Virus record (IMG/VR): IMGVR_UViG_3300000956_000003
Coordinates: 1 to 64,000 of that record
Strand: one strand, 5' to 3'
DNA from: a virus
DNA: 64,000 bases
Shown: positions 20,976 to 61,695 of the stretch, piece after piece
How the letters are laid out: each line of letters begins with the position of its first letter
Numbering within the stretch: position 1 is the stretch's first letter
The notes under the pieces: generated by a model
Databases searched by the model: none
What the model was told of the DNA's origin: nothing
The model's input: the letters and a program-made list of their open reading frames with translations, nothing else
Translations under genes and position numbers: made by a program

Positions 20976-20985
20976 AAAGGAGACC

Positions 20986-22036: not shown

Positions 22037-22064
22037 AAACCGGTCCCGGAAGGGCGAGAGAAAT

Positions 22065-25867: not shown

Positions 25868-25869
25868 AT

Positions 25870-43818: not shown

Positions 43819-43885
43819 TTCCAGTATATAATATCCGGGTCTTTGCTACGGATCAATGCCGTTAGCAGTTCGCGGGTGGTGATTT

Positions 43886-45071: not shown

Positions 45072-45077
45072 ATACGA

Positions 45078-45827
45078 TCATATTTTTATCCAGTTTTCGC
45101 AATAAATGTCTGTCGGATCAAGATTAGAATTCCCGGGCCCAAACCAAACAGACGGTGCGATGACTATTTTATCAGGGTTTGGGTTCAGCCATGCTCCCCA
45201 CCAGGAGAATGAACTGTTGGCGATGATGTTGTTTACGCAACCGGCCATTATAGCCAACGCAAGTTTAGGCTCAACCACATCGCAATAAACAACATCAACC
45301 CCCGTTGCATAGCTTTCTATGTATTCCTTTAGAATTGATTTAGCGGCTTGTAAATCATCGGAAAACACTAAGAACTTTCTGGTGTGTGATTTCGATACCA
45401 TTAAATCCATGGCATTGTAAAGGTATTCTGCGGTTACTGGCGGATGCTTATCCTTAAACTGTATATAATCACATAGTCTGATGTGTACCGAGCAGTGGTC
45501 TGATAAAACCGGTACAATTCCGAACAGATCTATTATTTCCTCACTTTTATCCACGAAATACTTTTCGCACTGCCAATAGCCATGGAGTTTAACATCTTTC
45601 AGGTATGCAGGGATAGGGGAATATCTATGACTGTGCTCTGTATAGTTTCTAAAAAGGCGTCGTGGATTAACCTTTGGTAAATGTTTAAAATAGGTTTCCC
45701 CGGTGTAGCTTCCTTGCGCTTTATCCGGGAAAGCAAAAGACTGACCAACGCGCCAGGCATGAGCCGCTGATGTGGCAATTTGAAACATTTGGTTGCCCAT
45801 CCTTCCTATGAGGTCGCAGCTTACCAT
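45078..45827 (-). CDS. GT11-family alpha-1,2-fucosyltransferase-like glycosyltransferase
   Basis: GRMGNQMFQIA (GT11 motif I), HGYWQCEKYF, SFSWWGAWL. Confidence 0.75.
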   Translation of the reverse strand: MVSCDLIGRMGNQMFQIATSAAHAWRVGQSFAFPDKAQGSYTGETYFKHLPKVNPRRLFRNYTEHSHRYSPIPAYLKDVKLHGYWQCEKYFVDKSEEIIDLFGIVPVLSDHCSVHIRLCDYIQFKDKHPPVTAEYLYNAMDLMVSKSHTRKFLVFSDDLQAAKSILKEYIESYATGVDVVYCDVVEPKLALAIMAGCVNNIIANSSFSWWGAWLNPNPDKIVIAPSVWFGPGNSNLDPTDIYCENWIKI

Positions 45828-46057
45828 GTATGTAATTGATTAGCAAAAAAATGTTTTGAACAATATTTCACAATTCCGCTGCGCGAAAATAATCGTTGCA
45901 AGAAATTTCTGTTATCTTTTATCTTCACCTTAATCTTAAACACCGCAACTGATGATCGCAACCTGCCATCATCATATTTGTTGAAAAACTTTGTCATGTA
46001 AGTAAATCGCTTACCATTCTCGACGAACTGATCTAATATTATGTCTGGATTATTCAT
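45821..46057 (-). CDS. hypothetical protein (78 aa)
   Basis: ORF. Confidence 0.35.
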   Translation of the reverse strand: MNNPDIILDQFVENGKRFTYMTKFFNKYDDGRLRSSVAVFKIKVKIKDNRNFLQRLFSRSGIVKYCSKHFFANQLHTW

Positions 46058-46815
46058 AACGCCATTATCATTTTCTTGATCTTTTCCGATTGCTCCATAT
46101 TGTATTTCGCGTCTTCAAGGAAGCCAGATCGGCTGTGCACCAAATGCTCGTACCTCATGTCAGGAACAATATAAAATGAGTTGTCGGCCGCCAGCCATAG
46201 GTAAGAAAACCATAAAGTATCTGTCGCTTTCATTTCCGGATTATGCTGGTAAACATTTAAATATTCATCACGATGCACGATATAGTTACAGCAGTTTAGG
46301 GACATCGTAAGTTCTTTACCATGAGGTCCGCGAAGCAATTGGGCAACATTGTTACGGTTTATGGTTACGGCCGCAAGGTTGGTAAAATTGAAATTGGGCA
46401 TTGCGAAATCCGGACAATATATTACCGTCTTTGGATGCATTTGGGTATTGCTCAGGGTCGGTGAGAAGTTGACTAAATCAAATTCCCATTCTGCTCGTAG
46501 ACGGTCATTTTCAAAGGCATCAAAATATTCAGGTGCAACAACGTTATCCGAGTCAATAATGGCGACCCATTCATTTGTAGCGTATGAAATCGCGTCGGCC
46601 TTGTTCCTGCTCATGCCCCGGTTATAAGCCTGCTGCATCACGCGCACATGCGCGTAGGGGACGAAATAATCCCGCAGTTTTTCATAACTGCCGTCGGTGC
46701 TTTTGTCGTCGAGAATCACAATATCGTCTATACGCGGATCATTCAGCACCTGAGCGCATGATTTGATCGGGAGATCAAAACGGTTGTAGGTTGTGATGGC
46801 TAAGCTTATTTTCAT
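46054..46815 (-). CDS. GT2-family glycosyltransferase
   Basis: ISLAITTYNR, VILDDKSTDGS, IDSDN (DxD). Confidence 0.8.
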   Translation of the reverse strand: MKISLAITTYNRFDLPIKSCAQVLNDPRIDDIVILDDKSTDGSYEKLRDYFVPYAHVRVMQQAYNRGMSRNKADAISYATNEWVAIIDSDNVVAPEYFDAFENDRLRAEWEFDLVNFSPTLSNTQMHPKTVIYCPDFAMPNFNFTNLAAVTINRNNVAQLLRGPHGKELTMSLNCCNYIVHRDEYLNVYQHNPEMKATDTLWFSYLWLAADNSFYIVPDMRYEHLVHSRSGFLEDAKYNMEQSEKIKKMIMAL

Positions 46816-47980: not shown

Positions 47981-48081
47981 TCATGGTACGCCTCAATATT
48001 ATTTATTGTTCAAAACCTGGATGTGGAGGAGGTCGCGGAACAAGGGGTACGCGCGGCGGGAGAGGTCGTTAAAAAACATTT

Positions 48082-49029
48082 ATGGCAAAAAAAGTAATTG
48101 ATTTCTTGAAGTCTTTAGCCGCTAAGGCAGGTGCGAATATGGAAGATGAAGCATTGAAAACGGCCTTTGCCGCAGTAAATGCTGATGCAGAATTGCCGGA
48201 TGAGCTTGTCACCGCAATTGATAACGGGCTGCTGTCTGTTGCCAATGCGAAGAACAACCACCCGGAGATTAAAAAGCACTATTTCGCCCAAGCATATAAC
48301 GGACTTGACAAAGAACTTGATGACTTTATTGCCGAAGAAAAACTCCCCGAAGAAATGGTTGCGGCCATTAAGGCCGAACAATCATCAACTAAACGCGCTA
48401 AACTGGTGGCCCTGAAGATCAAGGATCTACAACAGCAGAAAGCGAATGCCGGTAAGTCTGACAAGGAGGAACTGAATAAGCAGATAGCCGACCTGAATAA
48501 GGAACTGCGGGATATTAAGGACAAGGAGCAGAGTATTCATGCTGATTACAAAAAGCAGATCCAGGAGGTCAAAATGGGTCATGTTTTGGGTGGCTTACTC
48601 GGCTCTTACAAAACCGTCTTTGATGAACTCGATCCCGCTACGAAGGAAATTACTTTGAAGTCCATTATAAATAAGAATCTCGGAATCAAAAAGGCTCAAC
48701 TAAGCCTGGATGAGTCAGGTAACCTGGCTCTGATCGGTGCCGATGGTGCTAATGTATTCGGTGATGATCACCGGCCATTGACCCCGAAAGCCTTTCTGGA
48801 TTCTATAATGGCAAACGAAAAGATATTAAAGGTTACTGAAAACAGTAACAACAATTCTTCCAACAACGGCTCTAACGGGCAACACTTCAACGGCCAGCAA
48901 CGGCAACAGTTTAACAACGGCAACCAGAATCAAAATGGTAATGCCGGTAAAAAGAACACGGTCCTCGCCTCGCTATTACAGGAGAGTCAAACAGCTCTTG
49001 ACCTGGCGGGTAAATCACCTGTTCTGTAA
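48082..49029 (+). CDS. scaffolding protein (putative)
   Basis: Helical charged coiled-coil-like protein with Q/N-rich tail, immediately upstream of the capsid candidate. Confidence 0.4.
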   Translation: MAKKVIDFLKSLAAKAGANMEDEALKTAFAAVNADAELPDELVTAIDNGLLSVANAKNNHPEIKKHYFAQAYNGLDKELDDFIAEEKLPEEMVAAIKAEQSSTKRAKLVALKIKDLQQQKANAGKSDKEELNKQIADLNKELRDIKDKEQSIHADYKKQIQEVKMGHVLGGLLGSYKTVFDELDPATKEITLKSIINKNLGIKKAQLSLDESGNLALIGADGANVFGDDHRPLTPKAFLDSIMANEKILKVTENSNNNSSNNGSNGQHFNGQQRQQFNNGNQNQNGNAGKKNTVLASLLQESQTALDLAGKSPVL

Positions 49030-49060
49030 CAATCTTTTTTAACTCATAACTCTTTTAATT

Positions 49061-50191
49061 ATGGCCACCGGATTTTGTCCGAGCCTGCTTTATCATATAA
49101 ATGAGATAGCGGGCGAAAATGCTCCTGCGCGTAAGATGCACGTTGCCGGTTTTCTTGCTATGTTGTTCTGTTGCCAGAACAGCTCAGTATCACCCCTTAA
49201 TGATCCTTTTGCAAACGGTCACCAACGCGGATTGCAAATAAAATACAGGCGCCGGCCAGTGCTTGGCGATGTGCAGGATGAAGACAATTGCGATATCAAC
49301 ACGCAACCGGGATACCTGGAATGGACAATCCCAACCCTTTTACACCGTCAGGTTTCTTTTCATATATCGGACGATCTGATCAGCCGGTATTGCGAAGATG
49401 CAAGCCGTATGCGCGCAACAGGCGCTCCTCCCACTCAGGTAATGATGGAAGTATATGACCTGATCATTGAACACGCTAACATCTTGATGCGGGCCATCAA
49501 CCGTGCAGTTGTTACCTCACAAGCTACCGAATTCGGGGTTAACGTAACCACTGGTAGCGATACCGGTAAGGTGATCAATATACCTCGTAATGGCAATGAT
49601 TTTGTTTTGGATAACGGTATCATAGACATGATGCAGGATATCCAGGAGAACGAAATCTGCGGTGATCCTTGTATTGTCGGTGGTGGTATTTATGCCGCTT
49701 ACGACAAAGCCCGGGCCATTGCCTGCTGTAATGCCGCAGGAATTGATCTGTCCCGCACCGGTGTTCCGAACTTCTTCTTTGACAAGGATACCCAGTCGAT
49801 TTGGGGTACCAATTCAATCGGCCTCTTTGCGCCTGGTAGCGTGAAGTTCATTAGCCGTAACAAATTCGTTCGTGGATTTGCCGGCCAGAAGGGTACCAGC
49901 TTCTTCACAACACTCCCATTGCCGGTTCAGGAATTTGGTTGCGCTGACGATTGTCTCCGCGACCTGGTACTTGACATGCAATTGAAATACTTCGATTGCC
50001 CGACCGATGACGGTAATGGCGGAACCATTGAGCGCGGATGGCAGGTAATTCTGTCTAAGGATTTCGCACTGTGGACACAACCTACCGATGCCTTCCAGGC
50101 AACCGATGAACTGTTCGAAACCAATGGAACGCTGAAATACTTTGTAGCAAATACAAGCTATGGCGGCGATTCATACGCATACGCATTCTAA
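49061..50191 (+). CDS. major capsid protein (putative)
   Basis: 376 aa ORF following the scaffold-like gene; synteny only. Confidence 0.45.
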   Translation: MATGFCPSLLYHINEIAGENAPARKMHVAGFLAMLFCCQNSSVSPLNDPFANGHQRGLQIKYRRRPVLGDVQDEDNCDINTQPGYLEWTIPTLLHRQVSFHISDDLISRYCEDASRMRATGAPPTQVMMEVYDLIIEHANILMRAINRAVVTSQATEFGVNVTTGSDTGKVINIPRNGNDFVLDNGIIDMMQDIQENEICGDPCIVGGGIYAAYDKARAIACCNAAGIDLSRTGVPNFFFDKDTQSIWGTNSIGLFAPGSVKFISRNKFVRGFAGQKGTSFFTTLPLPVQEFGCADDCLRDLVLDMQLKYFDCPTDDGNGGTIERGWQVILSKDFALWTQPTDAFQATDELFETNGTLKYFVANTSYGGDSYAYAF

Positions 50192-50221
50192 AATTAACGG
50201 GGGATTCGTCCCCCTTTAAAT

Positions 50222-50734
50222 ATGCTTACCTGTTTCGTTGACTATATAGGCCTGCAGAATTGTGGTGGCGTTTACGAGGAATCTGAAAGCGGTCTATATA
50301 TCAATTCACTGCCGGGCATTAGCCTTGAATCCATTGATAAAATTGCCGACGCAGAGCAGATAACATACAAAGGTGTATGGGATGATGTTCAGACAGAGGC
50401 AATGGTCAGATTCAAAATTGATTTTATCACCGAGGTAACGAAGTGCTATAAGATCAACAAAGAATGTGATTACGAGGCTATAGCATGCGAGAATAAAGAA
50501 ACATTGGTAAATGCCTGGCGGTATCTGTTAGGCAACCAGTTGATGTTATTCCGACTGCACACTACTCGGTTAAACAGGTTCACGACCATTGATAAGGATA
50601 GCGCAGTTGAGCTGCGGGATTTTTATCAGGTGGAATACGAAAAAGCATTAACCCAGGCAGTAAAGCTAATTGATGTTTCTAGCTGCTGCATGGAATGTGG
50701 AGGCAACCCAGAAATTGTTTATTTCCTGCCCTAA
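50222..50734 (+). CDS. hypothetical virion protein (connector/completion candidate)
   Basis: late-operon position. Confidence 0.35.
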   Translation: MLTCFVDYIGLQNCGGVYEESESGLYINSLPGISLESIDKIADAEQITYKGVWDDVQTEAMVRFKIDFITEVTKCYKINKECDYEAIACENKETLVNAWRYLLGNQLMLFRLHTTRLNRFTTIDKDSAVELRDFYQVEYEKALTQAVKLIDVSSCCMECGGNPEIVYFLP

Positions 50735-51189
50735 TGGCTTCGATCAAACTAAATACAAATCTCCAAACTGTGACCGGTGATATCCGGGCGCGGATTGAAA
50801 AGCTAAAGGATAAGGATTACCTCCTGCGGCCGGTTTGCTTTGATCTGATTGATATAATGACCAAACGGATTCACAACAATGGCATTGCCAGCGATGGGGC
50901 GCCGATTGGAATCTATAGCAAAAGCTATTTGAAATTAAGGCAGGCGAAATATAAAAGGGATTCAGACCCTAAAACAATTGTTTCCCTCACTCGGCAGCTT
51001 GAAAACGATTGGTCTGTAATTGCTACACCAAAAGGCTATGGAATTGGATTTCTCAACGAATTCAATTTAAAAAAAGCCCGGTACGTGGAGCAAATAAAGG
51101 ATCGAATCATATTCAATCTAACAATGGAAGAAAATCAATATGCGATTGATCTTTTTAATGATCTGACAAACAAGGCGCTGAATGATTGA
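50734..51189 (+). CDS. hypothetical virion protein
   Basis: ATG 50734 preferred over tracked 50695. Confidence 0.35.
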   Translation: MASIKLNTNLQTVTGDIRARIEKLKDKDYLLRPVCFDLIDIMTKRIHNNGIASDGAPIGIYSKSYLKLRQAKYKRDSDPKTIVSLTRQLENDWSVIATPKGYGIGFLNEFNLKKARYVEQIKDRIIFNLTMEENQYAIDLFNDLTNKALND

Positions 51190-51730
51190 GGATATCATTG
51201 ACATATTGAATGGTTCGCTGACTGGCCTGCACAGGGATGAAAAACTTTATAGCTTGGCACAATCGGTTATCAGAAAACAGGGCACCGAAATAGAGTTGCT
51301 CCCCGGCTTGATTGATAAAACAGGAGAAGTTCAATATGTGGGTATCGATGATGTTTCGACATTTATTCTTTACCACAAGTTGAATACGCTTTCGACAACG
51401 GCCAAGAATAACGGCCATGGCGATAAGCCCGGGGATCTGGTTAGTACCTACGGCCTTTCAATGATTATCTATTGGGACCGCAAAAGACTGAACAAGATGC
51501 CCGATGAATTACTCATGCTGTTTCATGCCCGGTTACCCCAGCTGATAACCAATATTCCGGATGTGAAAATGACGAAGATAAAAACGGGTAACGCGAATTT
51601 CAGCAGCCTGCAGGTGTATAACCAGGAGTATCAAGGAGCATCTTTTAATCTGCCGCCCAATGTGAATCTTATCAATTTGAATTACACAATCGAAATGACT
51701 TTTAACCCGGCCTGTTTGCCAACATGCTAA
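51182..51730 (+). CDS. hypothetical virion protein
   Basis: late-operon position. Confidence 0.35.
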   Translation: MIEDIIDILNGSLTGLHRDEKLYSLAQSVIRKQGTEIELLPGLIDKTGEVQYVGIDDVSTFILYHKLNTLSTTAKNNGHGDKPGDLVSTYGLSMIIYWDRKRLNKMPDELLMLFHARLPQLITNIPDVKMTKIKTGNANFSSLQVYNQEYQGASFNLPPNVNLINLNYTIEMTFNPACLPTC

Positions 51731-51751
51731 CGGGCCTCAAATAAAAATACT

Positions 51752-52312
51752 ATGGCATACGCTGTTTATTATCCCTCCGGCTGCGGAACATCGGTTCCCG
51801 ACCATTACTGTAATCCATGCGAAACCCTGGAACATGGAAGAATTCGATCAGTGGCATTTATTGCCAGTGATTTTGAGTTTACCGATCCCTCTGATCCCGA
51901 TGAATGGGAAGCCGGCATTGCAGCTAAGAAAATCATTGTCATTCCTGAAGTAAACGGAACATTTGACGGTGGATCAGAAGTTGAAACGGCTGGTTACGGT
52001 GATCAGCAAACAAAACTTGTTGGTTATAACTTCCAATCAACCTTCAATGATCCGAACTACAAGCTGAACGCGGATTTCTATAATGCAGTGAAACTATCCC
52101 GTAATTACAGGTACGCATACAGAACGGAAACCCAGGTGCATTTGACCACCAACACCGTTTCCATTATACCAAAAAACCCAGTGACCGAGGATCTTACATC
52201 TGAGGTTGTATGGAATGTTCTGGTAAAATGGTCGGAAGGGGATTTGCCCGTGCCTTACGATATGCCTACCGGAATATTTACGTGTTTCGACTATAGCGGC
52301 GTAATCGTTTAA
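51752..52312 (+). CDS. hypothetical virion protein (tail tube candidate)
   Basis: position upstream of the fibre/tailspike-like gene. Confidence 0.3.
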   Translation: MAYAVYYPSGCGTSVPDHYCNPCETLEHGRIRSVAFIASDFEFTDPSDPDEWEAGIAAKKIIVIPEVNGTFDGGSEVETAGYGDQQTKLVGYNFQSTFNDPNYKLNADFYNAVKLSRNYRYAYRTETQVHLTTNTVSIIPKNPVTEDLTSEVVWNVLVKWSEGDLPVPYDMPTGIFTCFDYSGVIV

Positions 52313-52366
52313 TCGGGATAGCCCGAATCAGTTATATAACTAAGGCGGGCGACCGCCTTTTAATTT

Positions 52367-55300
52367 TTGTATATGATCCGATTCATTTTTTTATTGATAT
52401 TAATCATCCCAACAATCTGCTTTTCCCAATCGGTTCTACCGCTTCGTGCGGATACTGTGCGGATTGAAAAAATAAATGGTTCTGCGGAGCTTCATTTAAG
52501 GAATGCTACTAGGGATAGCCTTGGGGTATTAACCAATATCGGCAATGGTCGCACCAGATTTTTGAAATCAAGGAAATCGGGTGACACTGTTTTTGTGGGA
52601 AAGGATACGATAATAGTTCCACAATTCACCCCAACCAACTTCGGATCGTACTATCGGCTATTCGTGCCGCCCAATAAATGGCGTACGCTGCGATCACCTT
52701 CGGATTGGCTTGTATTGGATACGGCCGGCACAGATGAAATGAGATTGATTATAGCTCCACAGGTCGGGTATGGATTGAACGTTGATTTCTTTGATGTCAT
52801 CCATGCCGATACCACGGAACTGGCAACGCAGTACGATTTAACGCAGATAAGTGGCGGCGGCTCCGGCGGTCCGGACTCCACCTTTTATAAACTCTCCTGG
52901 ACAGACGTAGAAAAATTTGGCGCCAAGCCGGACGGCGTTGAAGATTCTACCGGTAATATAACCGCCACATCAGCAACATTTACATCTTCGACCGCGAATT
53001 TCACAGCTGCCGATATAGGAAAGTACATAGCGGTTGGCGGCGCTGGTGCTGCGGGGGCAGAGCTTATTACAACGATCTCAGGGTTCACCAATAGCACAAC
53101 CGTAACACTCACGGCATCAGCCGGAACAACCGTTACTGATGCACGGTATCGGTATGGCACTAACAATACGGCCGCAATTCAGAACGCTATAAACTCCCTC
53201 GCGGATAGTTCAGCGGGTACATTGTATTTCCACCCTGGTAAATATTTTGTAACCGATCCACCCGTTACAGATGTTGACGGGTACAACCCTAATAGTGTAT
53301 TGTATATTCCACATTCTCCATACGCGCCATCTGCTAACCAGAAATCTATTCGGCTGTTAGGTTCTACGCCGCCGAACTTATTTATAGATTTTGCCAGTGG
53401 CCAGGCTGCTCCTGATGCTGGTACAGTGATTATGGCATTGCGCAATGATAGTGCAGCCTCTTTATTAGGCACAGTTGCCGACACAGCGCTGTATGGGATA
53501 TTTAATTGGAGAATGTGTTATTTGGAAAATCTGACGCTAAGAACAAAGTCAGACGACCAGGTAACTGATAAGAAGGCGCTGATGTCAGGTATCAATTTCG
53601 GACGACAAAACTTTGTTGTTATGAATAATGTTCGTGTGCAAACGACAAGTGCAACCGAAAATAGTGTGAAGCCGGACTCTTTATCGTATGGCATTTATCT
53701 TCCGATCGTCAACAATGGCGGGAACAACCATGTAGAAAATGTACTTGTTCAGGGGTACGGTATTGGCTTTAAGGTGAGCGAAAATACGTATGGAAATAAA
53801 CTTACTATATCATCGTGCAATATAGCATTGCAGATAGACAGTAGCCTTCACGCACTTGAATTTGGAAGAATACTAACGACGTGGTGTCCCACCAAACTGA
53901 AGGTTACCGGGACGTCATATTTCAGCATCAAGCAATACGATATTGAACATTATAGTATTGGATCATATTGGTTCAACGATGTGGTGGATTTGGACGAAAG
54001 GTTAGCGTATAATTCAATAGGTGATATAACATACTTTATTCAATTAGCTTATGGTGGACAGTCGATAAATACGTTCACCCGGACAGGTAATTATATGACT
54101 TCTGGAATAAAAGCTAATCCAATCGGTGGGGTTGTGTCTCACAATTTTGTGAACGCCACAAATCAGGAAGTTCGTATCGGATCAATGAAGGGCGCAGACG
54201 GCAGTTTTATGTTGATCACCGACGGTACGGGACAAACTAGTAATAACCTCGCATTTGGAGGCGTGAAAAAAAGATCATTTGGAATTGGATTAGCAGGCAC
54301 AGGCATAAATGATCATTTTACTTACAATGTCGCTACCGGACGGGTCAATCAATATATTGATGTGGACGATAATCAATATTTCGGTGGAGCGCAGGCGCAT
54401 ATTACGCCTCAACTATCATTATTACGTGCCGATAGTTCTGCAATATTCGCAGGACAGGCAACGTTCAACGCAGGCTCGATGATCTTTACAAGACAAAGCG
54501 GAACTTTTCCAACATTTTATTACGGCAACCTGGCGGGGGCTAGTAACGCAAAATGGGCTGATTGGTACAATTCGGGTACCGTTATATCTCACCGGTGGTT
54601 AACAGACGCCCTTGCTGGTCCTGTTGAATTCTTTAAAGCAACAAGAGGCGGGGATGTGGAATTCCCGTCTGGCAATGTCGCTACAGCGGGTAATCTGTCG
54701 ATCGGGTCAACCACTACAACAGATGCCAGGTTGAAGGTTGAAAACAATACCAATGCGGCCAATCTGACTTTGTTCAAAAATACGGATGCCGGATCAGGAG
54801 CAAGCGTAATGAACCAGTTTCAGAATAATGCGGGATCGGTGTATATGTACCTATCCTCATCAACTTCCGCGCTGTCAAATGAATTTTTGATTCAACAAAC
54901 GATTGGTAATATCCGTATGTACACGGGAGCGGGTGAAGTTGTCCGGATAACATCTGGCGGAAAATTTAGGATAACGGCTACTCCGGATAGCGGTGCAGCT
55001 ACCGGTGGTTATCTATATAGAGATTTTGCAACAGGCGATGTAAGGTTAGGGCCAGGCGCGAGTGGGGCGGATGGCAACGGCATTTACACTGGCAATGGAT
55101 CATTATCAGGTAGTACAACTATAACCGGTGCAGGCAACACGCTAACAATGACCGGCACCCAATCATCCCTGTATGCTTTTAATGTGACCAATACGGGAAA
55201 TGGTGGTGCAGGATCCTTTGCCACCAACGGAACAGGCTCTGCTCTAACGGGTGCTAACAGTTCGTCGGGTAATGGCGTACTGGCAACCTCTTCTTCCGGT

Positions 55301-56014
55301 AATGGTATCAGCGCTACGAGCGTATCGAGCATTGCCGGGCGATTTAAGATCACGCCGACATCGACCAATACCGTAGTGCATGTTTTCCGTACAATACGCG
55401 GCAGTAGCAACACAATGGCAGCAGGTGGCGGCGGTGGTTGGGATATGCAGGTAACCGACGATGCCGGTAATGATGTTAGCGGGGCATCTATAGCGCCCGT
55501 ACTTACCTCTGCTGCAACCGGGGCAACAACTACCGATATACAAATGGAAACCACAAATAGTGGATCAAAGACGCTGAAGTTTACGCTGAAGGGCAATGGT
55601 CAGCAACGACTGCACGCATACACAACAGGCGCATTCGCTGGCACACCAACAGACGTATTAGCGTCGGACGCAAGTGGTAATGTTGTTCAAGCCACACCTA
55701 CACAATTAAATGCGCTCATGGCTATGTCTGTAGTTGCCGCCGATCCGGACAACTGGAATGCAGCAGTAAGTACATTCACAACCTTACCCAGCCTGGCAGG
55801 CGCAGGAGGTAGCAAGACGGTTACGCTGCCTTCTGCGGCCAGTAATACTGGTAAGACTATAATCCTGCACAACGTAAACGCCGATGCGAATCTGTGGTCG
55901 TTCGCTGCCGCGATAACCTTGGCGAACGGAACAACTACCACAACTTTTGGGAATCAAACGCTAAAAACATTATTAAGTAATGGGTCTGTATGGATACAAA
56001 TTTCAAGTCAATAA
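52367..56014 (+). CDS. tailspike/depolymerase-like beta-helix protein (pectate-lyase fold) with Sec-type signal peptide
   Basis: N-terminus MYMIRFIFLLILIIPTICFSQS; FGAKPDGVEDSTGN...NTAAIQNAIN matches the Pectate_lyase_3 N-terminal signature; 1215 aa, S/T/G/N-rich. Confidence 0.55.
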   Translation: MYMIRFIFLLILIIPTICFSQSVLPLRADTVRIEKINGSAELHLRNATRDSLGVLTNIGNGRTRFLKSRKSGDTVFVGKDTIIVPQFTPTNFGSYYRLFVPPNKWRTLRSPSDWLVLDTAGTDEMRLIIAPQVGYGLNVDFFDVIHADTTELATQYDLTQISGGGSGGPDSTFYKLSWTDVEKFGAKPDGVEDSTGNITATSATFTSSTANFTAADIGKYIAVGGAGAAGAELITTISGFTNSTTVTLTASAGTTVTDARYRYGTNNTAAIQNAINSLADSSAGTLYFHPGKYFVTDPPVTDVDGYNPNSVLYIPHSPYAPSANQKSIRLLGSTPPNLFIDFASGQAAPDAGTVIMALRNDSAASLLGTVADTALYGIFNWRMCYLENLTLRTKSDDQVTDKKALMSGINFGRQNFVVMNNVRVQTTSATENSVKPDSLSYGIYLPIVNNGGNNHVENVLVQGYGIGFKVSENTYGNKLTISSCNIALQIDSSLHALEFGRILTTWCPTKLKVTGTSYFSIKQYDIEHYSIGSYWFNDVVDLDERLAYNSIGDITYFIQLAYGGQSINTFTRTGNYMTSGIKANPIGGVVSHNFVNATNQEVRIGSMKGADGSFMLITDGTGQTSNNLAFGGVKKRSFGIGLAGTGINDHFTYNVATGRVNQYIDVDDNQYFGGAQAHITPQLSLLRADSSAIFAGQATFNAGSMIFTRQSGTFPTFYYGNLAGASNAKWADWYNSGTVISHRWLTDALAGPVEFFKATRGGDVEFPSGNVATAGNLSIGSTTTTDARLKVENNTNAANLTLFKNTDAGSGASVMNQFQNNAGSVYMYLSSSTSALSNEFLIQQTIGNIRMYTGAGEVVRITSGGKFRITATPDSGAATGGYLYRDFATGDVRLGPGASGADGNGIYTGNGSLSGSTTITGAGNTLTMTGTQSSLYAFNVTNTGNGGAGSFATNGTGSALTGANSSSGNGVLATSSSGNGISATSVSSIAGRFKITPTSTNTVVHVFRTIRGSSNTMAAGGGGGWDMQVTDDAGNDVSGASIAPVLTSAATGATTTDIQMETTNSGSKTLKFTLKGNGQQRLHAYTTGAFAGTPTDVLASDASGNVVQATPTQLNALMAMSVVAADPDNWNAAVSTFTTLPSLAGAGGSKTVTLPSAASNTGKTIILHNVNADANLWSFAAAITLANGTTTTTFGNQTLKTLLSNGSVWIQISSQ

Positions 56015-56021
56015 GATAACG

Positions 56022-57296
56022 ATGAAAAAACTACTTCTTTTTTTACTACTCATACCAGCCCTGCTGACTGCCCAGCGTGTGGATTACTATCCCAAAAGGG
56101 ACAGCACTTGGAAGGTAGTCCGGACCGTGGGCTTTGCCGTCTTACTTCCCGACAATTACAATACCAGTAAAAAATGGCCGTTTAAAATCGCTATTCACGG
56201 CATCGGGGAAAGAAGCGCCGGAACAATGGATAATCTGAAAAATCTGGTGTTAGGGTTCGACTATAACAATGATGGTTTCCGCGAAGGATCAGGCCTTGTA
56301 ACCGATGATATGAAGAAGGCGGTTAACATGTACGGTATCGTGCTGGTAATTCCCACTTACGAATCAACGGAGTTTTTTGAACCTGCACTGGTTAACTATG
56401 TGTATGATTTTATGCAGGCTAACTATTCAATAGTGCCTAAAATGTTTCTTACGGGCTTCTCATACGGCGGCGGGGCTGTTACAAAATACATAACCAGCAG
56501 CACGGCTAATGCCAGTAGGGTCGCGTATGCGGTCCCGTGTGCGCCCGTGAATTCCATTGTTACGGCCTCCATTCCGGGGCAATTTAAAATACCGGTGCAT
56601 TTTTTCGTCAACGATAACGATAATAACGGATCCACCAATTTGAATGTGACAAAGAATATGGTGAACGCTTTAAACGCAAGCAATCCAACTATACCAGCTA
56701 TTTACACAGCGTTTCGAAAGGACGGCCACGGAGGAAATGTAGAGGCATGGTCCTTAACGCCGCCCAAAGCACCAGGCGGGCAAGGCTTCACAGACGCGGC
56801 AGAAAACGTGTATCAGGTTTACCTCGATATACTGGCCAATGGTCCGCGGCAAATGAAATCAGGATCGGCTGTTATTGTTCAACCCCCGCCGCCTACCACA
56901 ATCACGACTAAAGCAATTGTCTCATTCACACTTACAGGCAACATAGTCCGGTTGGATGGTTCAAAATCTACCGGATACACAACTGGCCTTGATGGTGTGT
57001 GGGAGCTGGCAAACGCACCTGCGGGGCTATACGGTTGGGATGTTTTCCTTAAAGGTTCCAGCTATATAGTGGCAGATGCCACATTAACGAAACCCGGCGC
57101 CTATTCCTTCCGATTTAAATTGAAAGGAGATCCGGAGGTGAAGACGGTGGACATTAACTACGGGAAAACGTTCGTGGCATTTGATTCAGCAACAGACCTG
57201 ATTACATATAGCGACGGCACGACGCAGAAGGGAACGGCATTTTATTCTAACGGGAAGTGGGTGGTTAAAACAGATACAGGAACTATCATTCAATAA
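56022..57296 (+). CDS. secreted alpha/beta-hydrolase esterase
   Basis: Signal peptide MKKLLLFLLLIPALLTAQ; IHGIGERS and the GFSYGGG nucleophile elbow (GxSxG); beta-rich C-terminal domain. Confidence 0.55.
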   Translation: MKKLLLFLLLIPALLTAQRVDYYPKRDSTWKVVRTVGFAVLLPDNYNTSKKWPFKIAIHGIGERSAGTMDNLKNLVLGFDYNNDGFREGSGLVTDDMKKAVNMYGIVLVIPTYESTEFFEPALVNYVYDFMQANYSIVPKMFLTGFSYGGGAVTKYITSSTANASRVAYAVPCAPVNSIVTASIPGQFKIPVHFFVNDNDNNGSTNLNVTKNMVNALNASNPTIPAIYTAFRKDGHGGNVEAWSLTPPKAPGGQGFTDAAENVYQVYLDILANGPRQMKSGSAVIVQPPPPTTITTKAIVSFTLTGNIVRLDGSKSTGYTTGLDGVWELANAPAGLYGWDVFLKGSSYIVADATLTKPGAYSFRFKLKGDPEVKTVDINYGKTFVAFDSATDLITYSDGTTQKGTAFYSNGKWVVKTDTGTIIQ

Positions 57297-57307
57297 AAAA
57301 ATACTTT

Positions 57308-57724
57308 ATGTGGCAACTATATCTTACCTGCACAGCCATCGCACTTATAGGCATGGCATTACAGGTCGCCTTAAAATTAAAATCATTGCAGGAAAAGGCG
57401 GCCGTTTCCAATGCGGAGTTTAATGTAGGGATGTACTTTAAGTATGACTGGGTATCCCTGTTATGCTCTGTATTGACCATTGCATTATTTCTTTTTTTCC
57501 TAAAGGATGCGGTTGAAAAATACCCGAACCTGCTTATTATAAAATTACTATTCGGATTCATTGGTTATACCGGCGCTGATGTGGCAAGCAGGTTGTTTAG
57601 CGTGGTCAACAAACGATTGAACCACATTATTGATCTGAAGACAAATGTATCTGATAAGGTAAGCCCATCGGCGGCACCGCAGTCGGTAGATACTAAGGCA
57701 AGCACGGGTGGAAAAACAGTTTAA
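57308..57724 (+). CDS. 3-TM membrane protein
   Basis: three hydrophobic helices. Confidence 0.4.
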   Translation: MWQLYLTCTAIALIGMALQVALKLKSLQEKAAVSNAEFNVGMYFKYDWVSLLCSVLTIALFLFFLKDAVEKYPNLLIIKLLFGFIGYTGADVASRLFSVVNKRLNHIIDLKTNVSDKVSPSAAPQSVDTKASTGGKTV

Positions 57725-57832
57725 AATGTGCATAATGAGCATTGATAAATCAACAACTCACAACCATTATTATGGTTGTGATCCAACTATTTCGGACAAA
57801 CTAAATTTTTTAATTCAACAAAACACAAAAAT

Positions 57833-58052
57833 TATGGCAGACTTAACAAAACTTGAACAGGAAGTTTCTGAAAACAAAACGGTAATGCAATCGGCTGTTA
57901 CTCTTTTACAGGGACTGAAACAGAAACTCGATGAAGCCGGTACCGATGCGGTTAAATTGAAACAGCTCAGCGATGAACTGGACAGCAATACGAATGCTTT
58001 GGCAGAAGCAGTTTCGGCAAACACGCCAGCTGAAGGTCAACCTACTGAGTAG
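57833..58052 (+). CDS. small coiled-coil protein
   Basis: ATG 57833 (MADLTKLEQE) inside the tracked 57708 ORF. Confidence 0.3.
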
Positions 58053-58060
58053 GCTTTTTT
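58041..58060 (+). terminator. rho-independent terminator
   Basis: CCTAC-TGA-GTAGG then C + T6, overlapping the stop codon. Confidence 0.45.
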
Positions 58061-58076
58061 CTTAGTATTATCCATA

Positions 58077-58106
58077 TGGCCGCTGCAGAAATGTGGCGGC
58101 CCATTT
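58077..58106 (+). terminator. second terminator-like hairpin
   Basis: GGCCGC-(11 nt)-GCGGCC then CATTTTAAAA. Confidence 0.4.
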
Positions 58107-58170
58107 TAAAACCTCCAATAACACCATGAATTACCATCGCCCCTAAATACATAAGTAAGGAGCGAATCGT

Positions 58171-58686
58171 ATGCAACAACAAAAAACTTACTCCCAGCAA
58201 GTCAACATCTTGACGTACGTGCTGGAGGATGACGAAGACATTATTGAACTGCTTGATCAGTTATTTAAAATGAATGGTTTTGTAGATTATGTGTTCTTCA
58301 AAGAATCCGAAAAATTTGTACTGAACCTTAACGAACGTGTTCACATTTGCGTCATAGATTACTCGTTAGGTGGGAAGATGAACGGGATAGACATTTTAAA
58401 GATCGTGCTCAGCCAAAACCCCTGGTGTAAGGTGATCATGGTCACCGGTAATGTGAATCCGCGGATTGTCATCGACTTTGTGAACAATGGCGGGTTTAGG
58501 TTTATACCAAAAGGAGAACCCGAGTTCAATAACCTTTTGGTGACTTATTTACAGGAGGCTATTGCGATTGTAAAGATGCAGCTTGATACGCATCAGGAAT
58601 TGAAGGCGTCTTATGAAGAATTAAAACAACGAAAAGAAAAAAAATCACCGCCCAGTGAAACCGGATATATACCAATTGATAGCTAA
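58171..58686 (+). CDS. standalone response-regulator receiver (REC/CheY-like) domain protein with coiled-coil tail
   Basis: ILTYVLEDDEDI (acidic pocket), HICVIDYSLGGKMNGIDILK (phospho-acceptor Asp), KVIMVTG (Thr), FIPKGEP (Lys); AGGAG 8 nt upstream; no output domain. Confidence 0.7.
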   Translation: MQQQKTYSQQVNILTYVLEDDEDIIELLDQLFKMNGFVDYVFFKESEKFVLNLNERVHICVIDYSLGGKMNGIDILKIVLSQNPWCKVIMVTGNVNPRIVIDFVNNGGFRFIPKGEPEFNNLLVTYLQEAIAIVKMQLDTHQELKASYEELKQRKEKKSPPSETGYIPIDS

Positions 58687-58939
58687 ATCGATTGCCGAAT
58701 TAGTAATGTATGGAATATCCATATTCGCTGTTTTACAGGGTTGGAAATTATTCATACAGGAAAAGTCTGTCGGCAAAACAGCCATTAACAAAATAAAGGA
58801 AGATTACAATACCCTGCGAAAAGAGTTAGAGGATTACAAAAAGGATCACGAGGAAATGAAGGATAATATTGAGCACATTGAATCCCAATACGAGAAACTG
58901 ATCGAAAAAATATTGAACAATTTTCCCTTCAACAAATAA
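58655..58939 (+). CDS. small TM + coiled-coil protein
   Basis: ORF; internal ATG 58706 would avoid overlap with the REC gene. Confidence 0.35.
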   Translation: MKPDIYQLIAKSIAELVMYGISIFAVLQGWKLFIQEKSVGKTAINKIKEDYNTLRKELEDYKKDHEEMKDNIEHIESQYEKLIEKILNNFPFNK

Positions 58940-58940
58940 T

Positions 58941-59588
58941 ATGAAAGTCCACCTGCAAAAATACTGGTTCACTTACCTGCTGGCCGCTGTCGCCATCTTC
59001 CTACTGATTCTTTTGCTGTCGGGTAATAAGCCGATTGACAGCCACGCGTCGGAAGCGGCGGCACTGAAGAAGGAGAACGCTGAACTATCCGATCGGATCA
59101 GCCGGGAACAGAAGGTTCACGATAGCCTGCATGCGGAGATCCGGCACAAAGACAGTGCTGTATCGGCGCTGCGCATTCAACAAACCGTTAAGGACCAGCA
59201 GATCAGAAAAGCCAAAGGGCAGGTATTGGCCCTGGCGGATGACGTCCGGGAGTTGCAACGTAATGACACATCAGAACTGGCCCGCAAAGCCGACAGCCTG
59301 CAACAGTACACCCGCGATCTGATCATGCTAAATGATGCTTATGTTGAATTCACTGATTCGCTCAATAGCCTTGTGGATAGAAACAAGGCTGATTACGAAC
59401 GGCTGATTTCCGATAAGGATAAGTTATTCAACCAGGTGAATGCGGCCCGGGATCGGTGTGTGGAAGATTATGCGGGGCTTAAAAAAGACTACGATAAACT
59501 TGGTAAAAAGTTGAAGCGAAATAAATTGTTAACAAAGGTTACTGCTGTACTGGCCGGGGCACTGGCTGTGATTGCGGCGGTGAAGTAA
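58941..59588 (+). CDS. membrane-anchored coiled-coil protein (N- and C-terminal TM segments)
   Basis: TM helix at each end with about 160 aa of coiled coil between; lies in the lysis cassette. Confidence 0.45.
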   Translation: MKVHLQKYWFTYLLAAVAIFLLILLLSGNKPIDSHASEAAALKKENAELSDRISREQKVHDSLHAEIRHKDSAVSALRIQQTVKDQQIRKAKGQVLALADDVRELQRNDTSELARKADSLQQYTRDLIMLNDAYVEFTDSLNSLVDRNKADYERLISDKDKLFNQVNAARDRCVEDYAGLKKDYDKLGKKLKRNKLLTKVTAVLAGALAVIAAVK

Positions 59589-59710
59589 AATACTTGTACG
59601 GTTACAAGAGGTTTGCATATCCAATTGAATTGATAATGAATTATTTGAAGTTTCCCGGAACAATCTTTTTGTATCAATACAAAACCTTTTTAAACTAAAA
59701 AATCAACTAT

Positions 59711-60052
59711 ATGGGTAAGAAAATAAGAGATGACGAAAAGCTGATGACCATTGTGGTCTGCGGCATATTTACGCTGGGGTTAATAATCCTGGAACTGGTT
59801 TATGGCATGTTCAGCCAGATGAATGGCTTCATGTGGTTAGCTGTCATTGTGCTTCACATTCTTCTCGGGTACTGCTGGTTTGTGGTCTTAAAAAACATGT
59901 ACGACCCGAACTTCGATAAATGGCGCGGCTTTAATATAGGAATAGCCATTGTTACCATTATAGTAGTTCTGGGCCACCGATCCGACAAGCTCGGAACCAT
60001 TGAGTTCTGGAAGGAAGTGGAAAAGAATAAGATCGAAAACGCAGCGCCATGA
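59711..60052 (+). CDS. holin-like 3-TM membrane protein
   Basis: 113 aa, three TM helices, two genes upstream of the endolysin. Confidence 0.45.
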   Translation: MGKKIRDDEKLMTIVVCGIFTLGLIILELVYGMFSQMNGFMWLAVIVLHILLGYCWFVVLKNMYDPNFDKWRGFNIGIAIVTIIVVLGHRSDKLGTIEFWKEVEKNKIENAAP

Positions 60053-60390
60053 TCAGTATTATCCTTTTCATCCTGGCCGCCTTCTTTAATGCGGTTATGG
60101 ATGCTACCGAAAACGCACCCAACTTTAACGAAAGCCGGTTTAAAAACCTGCCTAAAACATTTTGGTTAAAGGAAGTAAGCTGGAAGTATGCCGCCCGGTT
60201 GTTCAATTACAAATTGGATGCCTGGCACATCGCTAAGTCCTGCATGGTCATCTGTTTTGTTCTTACTGCTATCTTCTTTGACTGGCCGGTTGAGAAATGG
60301 CAGGATGTGGCGATATATCTTATTGCAGGCGGCGTTATCTGGAATGCAACCTTTTACTTTTTCTATCACGTTTTATTTAAAGTCAAGTAA
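60049..60390 (+). CDS. holin-like/membrane protein
   Basis: 113 aa, 3-4 TM helices, overlap-coupled to the endolysin. Confidence 0.45.
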   Translation: MISIILFILAAFFNAVMDATENAPNFNESRFKNLPKTFWLKEVSWKYAARLFNYKLDAWHIAKSCMVICFVLTAIFFDWPVEKWQDVAIYLIAGGVIWNATFYFFYHVLFKVK

Positions 60391-60869
60391 TGGTAACATC
60401 GAAAGAGTTTTATGAAAAGTACGGTCACCCCTCGAAGCTAAACAACATTGTAATGTGGGATGTGCCCGCCGAGCTTGAAATAGGCGTGATCCCGAAACGG
60501 ATATACTGCAATAAGGATCTAATAGGCCCCTTGTCGCAAGCGTTCAGCAACCTGATCCATCGCGGCTTTGTGAAAGAATTAAAGACCTGGGACGGCTGTT
60601 ATAATTTCAGGCCCATCCGTGGTTATGAAAAGAAGTACGAGGCGGCCATGAAAGCTGGCAACATTGCATTGGCTATTACCTACCTATCTACTCATAGCTG
60701 GGGTGGTTCAGTAGATGTAAATGCTTTTGAAAATGGGTTAGGCAAAGAACCAAAGTTGTCTCCCGGATTCGTAAAATGCTTTACTGATGCAGGACTTGAA
60801 TGGGGTGGAACCTGGAAAAGAAAGGATGGCATGCATTTTCAGCTTGCAAAATTACCTGCAACTAATTAA
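60390..60869 (+). CDS. endolysin, peptidase M15 family (L-alanyl-D-glutamate peptidase / VanY-like)
   Basis: STHSWGGSVD (H-x6-D zinc ligands) and DGMHFQL (third His). Confidence 0.75.
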   Translation: MVTSKEFYEKYGHPSKLNNIVMWDVPAELEIGVIPKRIYCNKDLIGPLSQAFSNLIHRGFVKELKTWDGCYNFRPIRGYEKKYEAAMKAGNIALAITYLSTHSWGGSVDVNAFENGLGKEPKLSPGFVKCFTDAGLEWGGTWKRKDGMHFQLAKLPATN

Positions 60870-60963
60870 ACTCGGTTCTAAATAATAACCCATCGTAAGG
60901 GTTAGATTCTTTCGGCCCTCCGTCTCAACGGTTGGGCCCTCTTTGTTTTACGGGTTCCCGTAA

Positions 60964-61386
60964 TTATTTTAAAACGGTTTCTTTTATTGTGAGTTCTGTG
61001 CCGGTGAGGGCGTAGAATAAGTTCTGCAACTGGTGGACGAAATAAAGAGCAGCATACTTATTGTGCGTAAAATGAAGACGATATTCCTCCAATTTTTCAC
61101 CTTCATAAATAAAAATATTATACCTGCCTAAAGAGGGGGCATTGTAGCACTCGCCCGTAAATTCAAACCCAAAATTAAGTAGAATTTCCTCTTCCAAAGG
61201 AATGGGGTCAAGATCCGAAAGCGTACAATCGGAAGCCCAAAAACAGTTCTTTGCCCAGTCTTGTTCAATTACCTGGATAGGGTGAATACGGTCTTTACAA
61301 ACAGCCCTCAATTCATACCAGTTGTTACCGGGCATATCGTTTCTTAATACGTAATTTCCTATTCGAAGTTCGTTTGCTTGTATCAT
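60964..61386 (-). CDS. hypothetical protein, paralogue of 40291..40770
   Basis: Shared MIQAN / NNW / FVHQLQNLFYALTGTEL motifs. Confidence 0.5.
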   Translation of the reverse strand: MIQANELRIGNYVLRNDMPGNNWYELRAVCKDRIHPIQVIEQDWAKNCFWASDCTLSDLDPIPLEEEILLNFGFEFTGECYNAPSLGRYNIFIYEGEKLEEYRLHFTHNKYAALYFVHQLQNLFYALTGTELTIKETVLK

Positions 61387-61695
61387 ACTTTACCGGCTCC
61401 TATCCGGCGGGGGTTAAAATATCAATTTTATATTCCGTTTGATCGTCGGTATAAGATACGCGTTTATATTCCTTTATTGCGTTCGCCTCATTATTTGACG
61501 CAATAATCCTTCCATTTATATTATACATTCTTATCCCCGGCGCATACCATTTTTCAATGCATTTTTCTACTTTGCCCCAAAGTTCATCTTTATTGAATGC
61601 GTCGACTTTTCTGGATTTATTAAAGCATTCGCCATTTGAGTGGTTTTATTTCCATCCGTATTTTTTGAGTACCGGCAAAAGCGCCGGCCAGTGGG

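Follow-up and report, generated by a model that had tools for sequence, protein, structure and literature searches.

What is an export signal doing on a protein with the architecture of a viral tail fibre, where it is unexpected? The question is raised by two consecutive late genes in a stretch of viral DNA of 64,000 nucleotides (nt) (IMG/VR record IMGVR_UViG_3300000956_000003, positions 1 to 64,000), called here the window. Tailspike-type depolymerases are treated as cytoplasmic virion parts. An earlier note, made from the letters of the window, had described two adjacent plus-strand open reading frames (ORFs) at this place, both said to carry Sec signal peptides, and the ORF list confirmed the pair:

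52373 to 56014, plus strand: ORF1, 1213 amino acids (aa), a modular tailspike- or fibre-like protein predicted to be exported (ORF list and homologue starts).
56022 to 57296, plus strand: ORF2, 424 aa, a predicted exported serine esterase (ORF list and homologues).

For ORF1, ATG 52373 was preferred over the mechanical start at TTG 52367 by comparison with the homologues P0005, P0008 and P0140, and for ORF2, ATG 56022, 8 nt past the ORF1 stop codon, was preferred over the mechanical ATG 55980. The mechanical starts are probably too far upstream, because homologues begin MIR(L/F)IF... and MKKLLL...; the large first ORF of the earlier note therefore stands, and its length is corrected from 1215 to 1213 aa. 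A protein identical to ORF1 (P0001) is encoded on a 66.9-kb JGI contig, and ORF2 has 105 homologues, the closest of which start MKKLLL.... We consider it highly probable, from the sequence features described below, that both proteins are exported and matured in the periplasm. Our preferred reading of their function, held tentatively and at a little less than even confidence, is that ORF1 and ORF2 are glycan-active enzymes, routed through Sec, matured in the manner of host envelope proteins, independent of the particle and released at lysis.

Leaders were called by a rule-based scan and by conservation among relatives:

52373 to 52426, plus strand: ORF1 signal peptide, residues 1-18, MIRFIFLLILIIPTICFS followed by Q (leader features and family).
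56022 to 56072, plus strand: ORF2 signal peptide, residues 1-17, MKKLLLFLLLIPALLTA followed by Q (leader features).

The predicted ORF1 leader is laid out as M-I-R, FIFLLILIIPTI and C-F-S, with the cut before Q-S; that of ORF2 is laid out as M-K-K, LLLFLLLIPALL and L-T-A, with the cut before Q-R. Both show a positive n-region, a 12-residue h-region (mean Kyte-Doolittle value of 2.8-3.0 over 14 residues), small residues at -1 and Gln at +1. The ORF1 leader is followed by a conserved N-terminal module (N-module):

52427 to 52621, plus strand: N-module, ORF1 residues 19-83; D-[ST]-x sequons are conserved at four positions, 27, 48, 71 and 78 (phmmer family).

A phmmer search with the first 151 mature ORF1 residues against 1.84 billion representative proteins revealed that the N-module defines at least 363 protein clusters (50% identity, E<=1e-3). 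In nearly all of the matches listed the module begins no more than ~35 residues from the N-terminus, residue 19-25 being the commonest start. It was unmatched in Pfam, PHROGs and PDB (hidden Markov model profile against all PDB sequences). Of two degenerate DNA patterns, one had no match in IMG/VR, and the other located a variant of the module in three IMG/VR viral contigs (61-63 kb).

A leader was present in 139 of the 150 N-module proteins examined, and every one of the 139 had Gln at +1. The remaining 11 begin within or past the leader region, apparently because the gene calls are truncated. Across the family the leaders drift in sequence and keep the K/R start, the uncharged hydrophobic core, the small residues at -1 and -3, and Gln at +1. 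Gln likewise follows the leader in all 25 leader-bearing esterases of the ORF2 type. A Gln at +1 is specific to signal peptidase I (SPI) substrates of Bacteroidetes (the Q-rule); SPI exposes this Gln, and a glutaminyl cyclase on the periplasmic face converts it to pyroglutamate, which stabilises exported proteins (PMC5837995, PMC10653852). The rule thus points to a host in Bacteroidota. Since an invariant Gln at +1 matters only after cleavage, an uncut leader is hard to reconcile with these data, and the suggestion of the earlier note that the hydrophobic N-termini serve as virion anchors was dropped, the sequence of the leader itself being unconserved. Its other suggestion, Sec signal peptides on both proteins, gained from the scan and from family conservation: both N-termini are well supported as genuine Bacteroidota-type export leaders.

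Other kinds of export signal were considered. A lipoprotein (signal peptidase II) reading of ORF1 Cys16 was rejected: there is no lipobox, the context P-T-I-C is atypical, and the Cys is absent in relatives (P0005 has ...AISFSQ). The ORF2 leader contains no Cys. Type IX secretion cargo was rejected for both proteins, which lack TIGR04183/Por_Secre_tail and had no NCBIfam match at E<=1; a type IX sorting domain (Pfam) occurred in 0 of 59 N-module family members. A signal-arrest-release (SAR) type anchor was ruled out by the strongly hydrophobic Leu/Ile/Phe core, the canonical cleavage site and the invariant Gln. Homologues of the ORF1 beta-helix part that have no leader carry N-termini that look non-Bacteroidota, as judged by eye from the N-terminal sequence alone.

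If the leaders are used, the proteins would be exposed to the host's general O-glycosylation system. ORF1 contains 11 D-[ST]-[AILVMT] sequons compared to 5.5 ± 2.2 in shuffled sequences (P ~0.02), all within residues 27-435; ORF2 contains 2. The hand count of 11 in the earlier note was exact, and the family data make the case for the sequons much stronger than that count did. Of the four N-module sequons, that at residue 27 is retained in 147/149 members, those at 48 and 71 in 116/150 each, and that at 78 in 139/150, and substitutions stay within the motif. Outside the module, the observed-to-expected ratio (O/E) of sequons in 148 N-module family members was 2.11 (1028 vs 487), the sequences in this and the other counts being related and the counts thus not independent. 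The median per protein in this family was 2.2, with O/E above 1 in 91% of members.

Enrichment of similar size was seen in nine leader-bearing beta-helix homologues without the N-module (2.41) and in 12 leader-bearing large proteins from fetched loci of three phage lineages (2.47). The ratio was 0.98 in 12 leaderless homologues, 1.23 in leaderless tail proteins of Bacteroides phage B40-8 and Flavobacterium phage 6H, and 0.74 in the other proteins of the phage under study. Esterases were depleted with or without a leader (0.56-0.57). Control motifs in the N-module family, which had Glu, Asn or Gly for Asp, the reversed order, a non-permitted third residue, or Ala/Gly or Asn/Gln for Ser/Thr, gave O/E of 0.59-1.25. 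The enrichment is specific to the exact motif and to leader-bearing proteins, as selection for glycosylation predicts. Proteins of Bacteroidota that reside outside the cytoplasm generally bear glycans at D-[ST]-[AILVMT], and motifs introduced by engineering are used too (PMC12871550). ORF1 combines predicted export with this motif, the sequence features of a Bacteroidota general O-glycoprotein.

An Asn-x-Thr triplet (RNATRD, INSTKD, ENGTR...) at ORF1 residues 44-46 (window 52502-52510) is kept in more than 90% of N-module sequences. We know of no PglB-type N-glycosylation in Bacteroidota, and the triplet is therefore probably structural.

These results bear on the most conventional account, in which ORF1 and ORF2 are ordinary cytoplasmic virion fibres and the hydrophobic N-termini, as an uncleaved anchor or an accident of composition, are never used by Sec. 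Such an account is the textbook expectation for tailspike-like proteins, and export is here a prediction from sequence. We nevertheless regard it as very unlikely indeed. Selection for SPI cleavage would be expected to produce just such a leader, one that drifts while keeping its charge, its core, its small -1 and -3 residues and its Gln at +1 (139 of 139), and the motif-specific sequon enrichment is restricted to leader-bearing proteins. Leaderless homologues and the fibres of B40-8 and 6H have neither leader nor enrichment.

What the mature proteins might do was assessed from their architecture. The parts of ORF1 beyond the N-module were delimited by BLAST against homologues and by AlphaFold:

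52622 to 52891, plus strand: shaft-like or linker segment, ORF1 residues 84-173, including the unit NFGSYYRLFVPPNKWRTLRS (common to P0138, P0005, P0009 and P0014).
52892 to 54649, plus strand: right-handed parallel beta-helix, ORF1 residues ~174-760, a putative glycanase/lyase domain (AlphaFold2 (AF2), Foldseek, PHROG).
54650 to 55084, plus strand: Gly/Ser/Thr-rich middle region, ORF1 residues ~760-904, poorly modelled (predicted local distance difference test score (pLDDT) <50; only P0002 aligns).
55085 to 56011, plus strand: C-terminal module, ORF1 residues ~905-1213, with a small beta domain at its end (homologue BLAST).

The earlier note had given ORF1 as a pectate-lyase-fold protein. A pectate-lyase-type beta-helix is indeed predicted, though only for about half of the protein rather than for its whole extent. 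In the AF2 model, pLDDT was mostly 80-98 for precursor residues 174-590 and moderate to ~760. Foldseek matches in PDB were modest (best E=4.5e-4); most of them, including all eight best, were beta-helix proteins, among them the GH55 glucanase 3eqn, the AlgE4 epimerase 2pyh and the tailspike-type structures 4ru5, 6eu4, 7w1c, 7vz3 and 4xkv, with tailspikes of phi297, AS12, HK620 and Sf6 and Klebsiella depolymerases represented. PHROG 32881, 'pectin lyase activity', matched ORF1 residues 178-293 (E=3.7e-24), and the motif FGAKPDG...NTAAIQNAIN that the earlier note had singled out sits within this region, where an insert of ~65 aa splits FGAKPDG...TAAIQNAI. PF12708 or PF13229 is present on some ORF1 homologues, and the beta-helix region is common to P0002-P0007 and to leaderless proteins.

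In the syntenic relative L001 (protein P0005) the N-module is 91% and the C-module 80% identical to those of ORF1, and the middle is a BNR_2 sialidase. The C-module also occurs in P0008 and P0009, and its last 70 residues are common to P0007. A Pfam survey of 59 other N-module proteins revealed a similar exchange of enzymatic domains (SGNH, SASA, BNR sialidase, beta-helix, LamG): SGNH esterases were found in 10, SASA sialate esterase, LamG and BppL_N in two each, and Peptidase_S74, DUF5907, BNR and a pectate-lyase-like domain in one each. A unit resembling N-[LIV]-G-[ST]-[GA]-[YF]-R-[LWV]..P....[IV]-K-[TS] was seen by eye after the N-module in many members, in ORF1 at residues ~90-110 (window ~52640-52702). 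P0139, whose N-terminus is not leader-like, matches query positions 74-111 in 22 separate stretches, which suggests that the unit may be a fibre-shaft repeat.

ORF2 was modelled with greater confidence (mean AF2 pLDDT of 92), and its parts are:

56073 to 56861, plus strand: alpha/beta-hydrolase catalytic domain, ORF2 residues 18-280 (AF2, Foldseek, alignment).
56460-56462, 56619-56621 and 56727-56729: codons of the catalytic Ser147, Asp200 and His236; the HG oxyanion motif is H59-G60.
56913 to 57164, plus strand: immunoglobulin (Ig)-like, PKD-type beta-sandwich, ORF2 residues ~298-381, after a Pro-rich linker (AF2).
57165 to 57293, plus strand: small conserved C-terminal beta domain, ORF2 residues ~382-424 (AF2 strands 384-417).

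The GxSxG esterase of the earlier note was recovered as GFSYG at residues 145-149, and H59-G60, S147, D200 and H236 do not vary among the 59 homologues aligned. Structural neighbours in PDB, by Foldseek, were the carboxylesterase 4q82 (E=8.7e-10), the esterase 3doh, DPP4-type domains and the feruloyl esterase BT_4077; those in BFVD were phage esterases. Sequence matches were marginal and below cut-offs (Hydrolase_4 E=0.11, PHB-depolymerase esterase E=0.04, CE1 Fae1A E=0.05). ORF2 is thus predicted to be a catalytically intact serine esterase of the alpha/beta-hydrolase fold. The strands of the Ig-like domain (301-380) were modelled at a pLDDT of ~90; PF22352 K319L-like_PKD is precomputed on some homologues, and S316, W327 and G359 are invariant. 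The C-terminal domain is strongly conserved (consensus FDSxTDLITYSDGSTEK, with D398 invariant). Two proteins of relatives, of 952 aa in L007 and 1105 aa in L014, begin with esterase-like 'HGNGE/GGNGE', suggesting further exported esterase fusions.

The leaders of the two proteins are not equivalent, as the earlier note had taken them to be: the ORF1-type leader is universal in its family, and the esterase leader was found in 25 of 101 full-length orthologues and has flipped repeatedly. The other 76 start at the mature N-terminus, M-[QK]-V-x-Y-x-P-K, and in-frame stops upstream in L003, L004 and L005 exclude missed leaders there. A crude esterase tree implied at least nine gains or losses of the leader, with leader-bearing and leaderless pairs sharing as much as 86% identity. 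The large protein of the same phages never lacks its leader. The compartment occupied before lysis therefore appears to matter for the ORF1-type protein and not for the esterase, and the tolerance of either leader state fits an esterase working at or after lysis.

The lysis region lies directly downstream:

57308 to 57724, plus strand: holin-like membrane protein, which opens the lysis region 11 nt past ORF2 (hydrophobic segments).
60390 to 60869, plus strand: endolysin of the Peptidase_M15_4/VanY type (Pfam E=3.5e-12, PHROG endolysin matches).

The holin-like protein had no family match; a clear homologue of it follows a block of leader-bearing protein and esterase in the unrelated lineage L007. 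Members of the endolysin family occupy the corresponding position in L001 and L004, and a weak spanin-like protein is encoded at 58941. A CheY-like receiver domain (PF00072, E=1.8e-12; 58171-58686, plus strand), in which no output domain was recognised, lies between the holin-like and spanin-like genes. The placement of the pair directly upstream of a holin-like gene and an M15 endolysin, a layout also seen in L001, L003, L004, L005 and L014, favours free enzymes.

The same placement could mean that the pair, or at least the esterase, is a lysis-cassette accessory that attacks an envelope layer from the periplasm, like the mycobacteriophage LysB esterase after the endolysin. The 11-nt gap makes co-transcription with the holin-like gene probable, and the esterase-then-holin adjacency recurs in the unrelated L007. 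The esterase is far more conserved than the catalytic part of ORF1, suggesting a conserved substrate, phage esterases are among its structural neighbours, and its two leader states mirror the division of endolysins into Sec-exported and holin-dependent ones. However, the phage already has a spanin-like protein, and a polymer-binding function is suggested by the Ig-like domain. One relative has a 454-aa beta-helix protein in place of the esterase, and in L014 other leader-bearing proteins fill that slot, so that the esterase is dispensable; the exchangeable, host-specific heads of ORF1 also misfit a generic lysis role. We consider a lysis accessory unlikely.

Upstream of the pair, a scan of 48000-61500 gave as its top site:

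52342 to 52359, plus strand: GC-rich hairpin with U-tract, terminator- or attenuator-like, between a 186-aa gene and ORF1.

The stem is identical in L001 and L003, and L014 has an equivalent hairpin of other sequence; none is present in L004 and L005, where the genes abut. The hairpin may attenuate expression of the downstream enzymes. A glycan cassette of glycosyltransferases and methyltransferases (GT7, GT47, two FkbM, GT11 and GT2) is encoded on the minus strand at 40291-46815. It co-occurs in three relatives, and its position and direction are unchanged in at least two (L014 1-4625 and the P0023 contig). The corresponding site in L003 is taken by an RNA ligase gene instead of the cassette, and the leader-bearing protein is kept. 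The cassette is thus frequent, not obligatory, beside a leader-bearing fibre-like protein, and the link between them is co-occurrence only.

These features raise the possibility that the proteins are made from the prophage and trim or deacetylate nascent surface polysaccharide in the lysogen periplasm together with the glycan cassette, in lysogenic conversion or superinfection exclusion. An integrase is encoded in the relative L001, which makes a temperate phage group probable; the hairpin separates ORF1 from upstream genes in some relatives, the cassette recurs, and a bacterial precedent is offered by WceF, an exported tailspike-like enzyme that trims exopolysaccharide (EPS) (PMC7949094). The genes lie, however, on the late strand between neck and lysis genes, and the 60-nt gap upstream of ORF1 contains no recognisable promoter. 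In L004 and L005 the ORF1-type genes are 10-15 nt from the upstream gene, and L003 has retained the leader-bearing protein where the cassette is missing. A role in the lysogen therefore seems decidedly improbable.

The rival that has to be weighed most closely is that ORF1 is a virion receptor-binding fibre or tailspike which matures through the periplasm, by cleavage, pyroglutamate formation and O-glycosylation, and docks through its N-module when the inner membrane opens or after lysis; ORF2 would ride along or be free. We view docking as a serious possibility, if on balance a doubtful one. Several observations in its favour weigh at the same time against free enzymes. The fibre-like build of ORF1, with a conserved N-module, shaft-like units and exchanged heads, is the canonical build of a receptor-binding protein and argues for a docking fibre. 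BppL_N, Peptidase_S74 and DUF5907, found on some family members along with a faint Phage_tail_beta, are typical domains of virion receptor-binding proteins. Each phage has a single N-module gene, at a fixed place after the neck genes. For an enzyme set free at lysis, export would have no obvious purpose, and still the ORF1-type leader is never lost; its universality is difficult to account for when lysis would liberate the enzyme in any case.

Docking is also favoured by the leaderless beta-helix homologues, whose N-termini look tail-fibre-like by eye, and by the contig L015, which has an SU10-type major capsid protein and in which the sole very large tailspike-like protein has a leader. The switching of the esterase leader, which shows that the pre-lysis compartment is uncritical in this system, speaks for docking as well. 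Fibres and tailspikes can attach to particles in lysates in vitro, as in T4 and P22 complementation assays.

Against docking, we know of no tailed-phage structural protein that is routed through Sec, and literature searches bearing on the point yielded none. No known particle-binding domain in Pfam, PHROGs or PDB matched the N-module, and four glycans on a module of 65 residues could hinder protein docking; such a module resembles a protective cap more than a surface for docking. Near the tape-measure gene lie genes for leaderless fibre or tail-tip candidates: a minor tail protein of 288 aa, rich in Gly, and others of 724, 245 and 400 aa. The siphophage fibres of B40-8 and 6H are leaderless as well, so export is no general need of fibres and the leader-bearing trait is not universal in the phylum.

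Other points also count against the free-enzyme reading. No Pfam family was found for ORF1 at E<=1, including Pectate_lyase_3/Beta_helix, and no catalytic residues were identified in its beta-helix. AF2 confidence was low for the N-module and the shaft-like segment, and half of the ORF1 model is unreliable. The esterase family is poor in sequons (0.56) irrespective of its leader, and we infer translocation, cleavage, pyroglutamate formation and glycosylation from the sequences. The free-enzyme reading is the simpler one, and its claim that the enzymes act off the particle is only slightly ahead of docking.

On the free-enzyme reading, events would run as follows. Late in infection, Sec would translocate both precursors, as their leaders suggest. 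SPI would cut before Gln19 of ORF1 and Gln18 of ORF2, and the host glutaminyl cyclase would convert the exposed residue, invariant in the family, to an N-terminal pyroglutamate. The general O-glycosylation system of the host would then decorate D-[ST]-[AILVMT] sites, chiefly the four in the ORF1 N-module, in keeping with their conservation and with the enrichment of the motif. Stable glycoproteins would accumulate in the periplasm until the downstream holin/endolysin cassette freed them. The N-module would be a glycosylated, protease-resistant cap and a nucleus for oligomerisation rather than a particle-binding domain. Once outside, the ORF1 beta-helix would cleave host surface polysaccharide and the Ser-Asp-His esterase of ORF2 would remove ester substituents. 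Capsule or slime would be cleared, and receptors on debris and neighbouring cells destroyed.

The wider gene content identifies the window as DNA of a tailed phage, with genes for a helicase, a primase/polymerase, an exonuclease, the large subunit of the terminase (24214), a tape-measure-like protein (28940), a 724-aa virion protein and a portal (37327), and with a probable capsid gene and four small neck-type genes (49061-52312). No tRNA genes were found in the window, and a search of species genomes for the host gave a single, irrelevant actinobacterial match. The terminase is at most 32% identical to those of SSU5-like phages, and megablast and tblastn searches of 50,697 phage records, for which the queries were the two ORFs and their region, the putative capsid protein and a capsid protein of the SU10 type, gave no useful cultured relative. 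The gene order around the pair (~315 aa, capsid of ~377 aa, then 170, 150, 180 and 186 aa, a large leader-bearing protein, the esterase or another leader-bearing protein, and holin through endolysin) is shared by L001, L003, L004, L005, L014 and the P0023 contig. In two unrelated lineages, too, large leader-bearing proteins immediately precede the lysis genes: L007 shares the holin and the esterase, and L015 has the SU10-type capsid. The pre-lysis block of relatives (L007 7098-14106, L014 15247-19010, L005 7552-12430) contains up to three consecutive leader-bearing proteins and, in L005, a small lipoprotein.

Other observations were made along the plus strand. A cluster of small exported proteins at 20577-23046, upstream of the terminase, looks like a moron or superinfection-exclusion block. 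It includes a 64-aa membrane protein, a protein at 20577 with an SPI-type leader and Gln at +1 (...SCNA, cut, QT), and lipoboxes at 20986 (LTAC), 21444 (SIAC) and 22246 (VTAC); the protein at 22246 matches phrog_200 'lipoprotein' (E=3e-33). A homing endonuclease (phrog_314, E=5e-20) at 26955-27698 separates the 288-aa minor tail protein gene (25843-26709) from the chaperone and tape-measure genes, and HNH/NUMOD endonucleases occur at other places in L005 and L014. Directly before the tape-measure-like gene, ORFs of 197 and 110 aa overlap in different frames at 28185-28939, as is typical of a frameshifted tail assembly chaperone pair. Between the tail-tip and portal genes, a 305-aa protein (36399-37316) appears GT8-type-like by eye (DxD-like 'FFDADMAW') and had no Pfam or PHROG match.

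ORF1 was compared with known systems. Like the tailspikes and depolymerases of P22, HK620, Sf6, Pseudomonas phi297 (gp61), Acinetobacter AS12 (gp42) and Klebsiella phages (K1 lyase, Depo32), it has a right-handed parallel beta-helix body, a conserved N-terminal module with horizontally exchanged catalytic parts, and a gene between the structural and the lysis genes. Unlike them, it has a predicted cleavable Sec/SPI leader with Gln at +1, an enrichment of sequons, and an N-module without a known particle-binding match. The leader with Gln and the enriched, conserved D-[ST]-[AILVMT] motif are shared with Q-rule substrates and O-glycoproteins of Bacteroidota (PMC5837995, PMC10653852, PMC12871550). 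In contrast to these host proteins, ORF1 is the product of a phage late-region gene and has a tail-fibre-like build, and its maturation marks are read from sequence.

Porphyromonas gingivalis prophages encode five Q-rule signal-peptide proteins of unknown function, and so share the use of a Bacteroidota-type export signal by a phage; that report describes no tailspike-like enzymes, conserved N-module family or sequon enrichment (PMC10367356). WceF of Pantoea stewartii resembles ORF1 in that a tailspike-type beta-helix with an export signal acts on surface polysaccharide; it differs in being encoded by a chromosomal gene of a proteobacterial EPS locus and in having no N-module (PMC7949094). A review of depolymerases mentions no signal peptides (PMC6966330), and the literature searched, on signal peptides of phage tail, receptor-binding and depolymerase proteins and on virion glycosylation, which was covered incompletely, yielded no description of leader-bearing tail-fibre-like phage proteins.

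The alpha/beta-hydrolase ORF2 shares its fold, GxSxG elbow, Ser-Asp-His triad and HG motif with the esterases 4q82, 3doh and BT_4077/CE1 and with phage esterases including the LysB type, from which it differs in its marginal sequence similarity (E 0.04-0.1) and its extra Ig-like and C-terminal beta domains. Secretory or SAR endolysins, as opposed to holin-dependent ones, provide the example of a phage late enzyme family in which exported members have leaderless close relatives, and the leader of the ORF2 family is present or absent in the same way. Unlike endolysins, ORF2 is an esterase, and its leader is of the strongly hydrophobic, cleavable SPI type rather than a weak SAR helix.

At least 363 clusters of phage fibre-like enzymes thus appear committed to host export and bear the marks of Bacteroidota envelope glycoproteins. 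The annotation of every beta-helix protein beside lysis genes as a 'tail spike' may err for these phages, and the leader with Gln at +1 offers a host-phylum marker for metagenomic phages. Recombinant production should begin at the mature Gln, and glycosylation may be needed. The esterase family is a natural series, with and without leader, for probing what export contributes. If docking is true, tailed-phage assembly would gain an extracytoplasmic step and host-type glycosylation of virion proteins, which would be categorically new. If the proteins are free enzymes, they would form a class of phage-encoded, periplasm-matured and probably glycosylated depolymerases and esterases.

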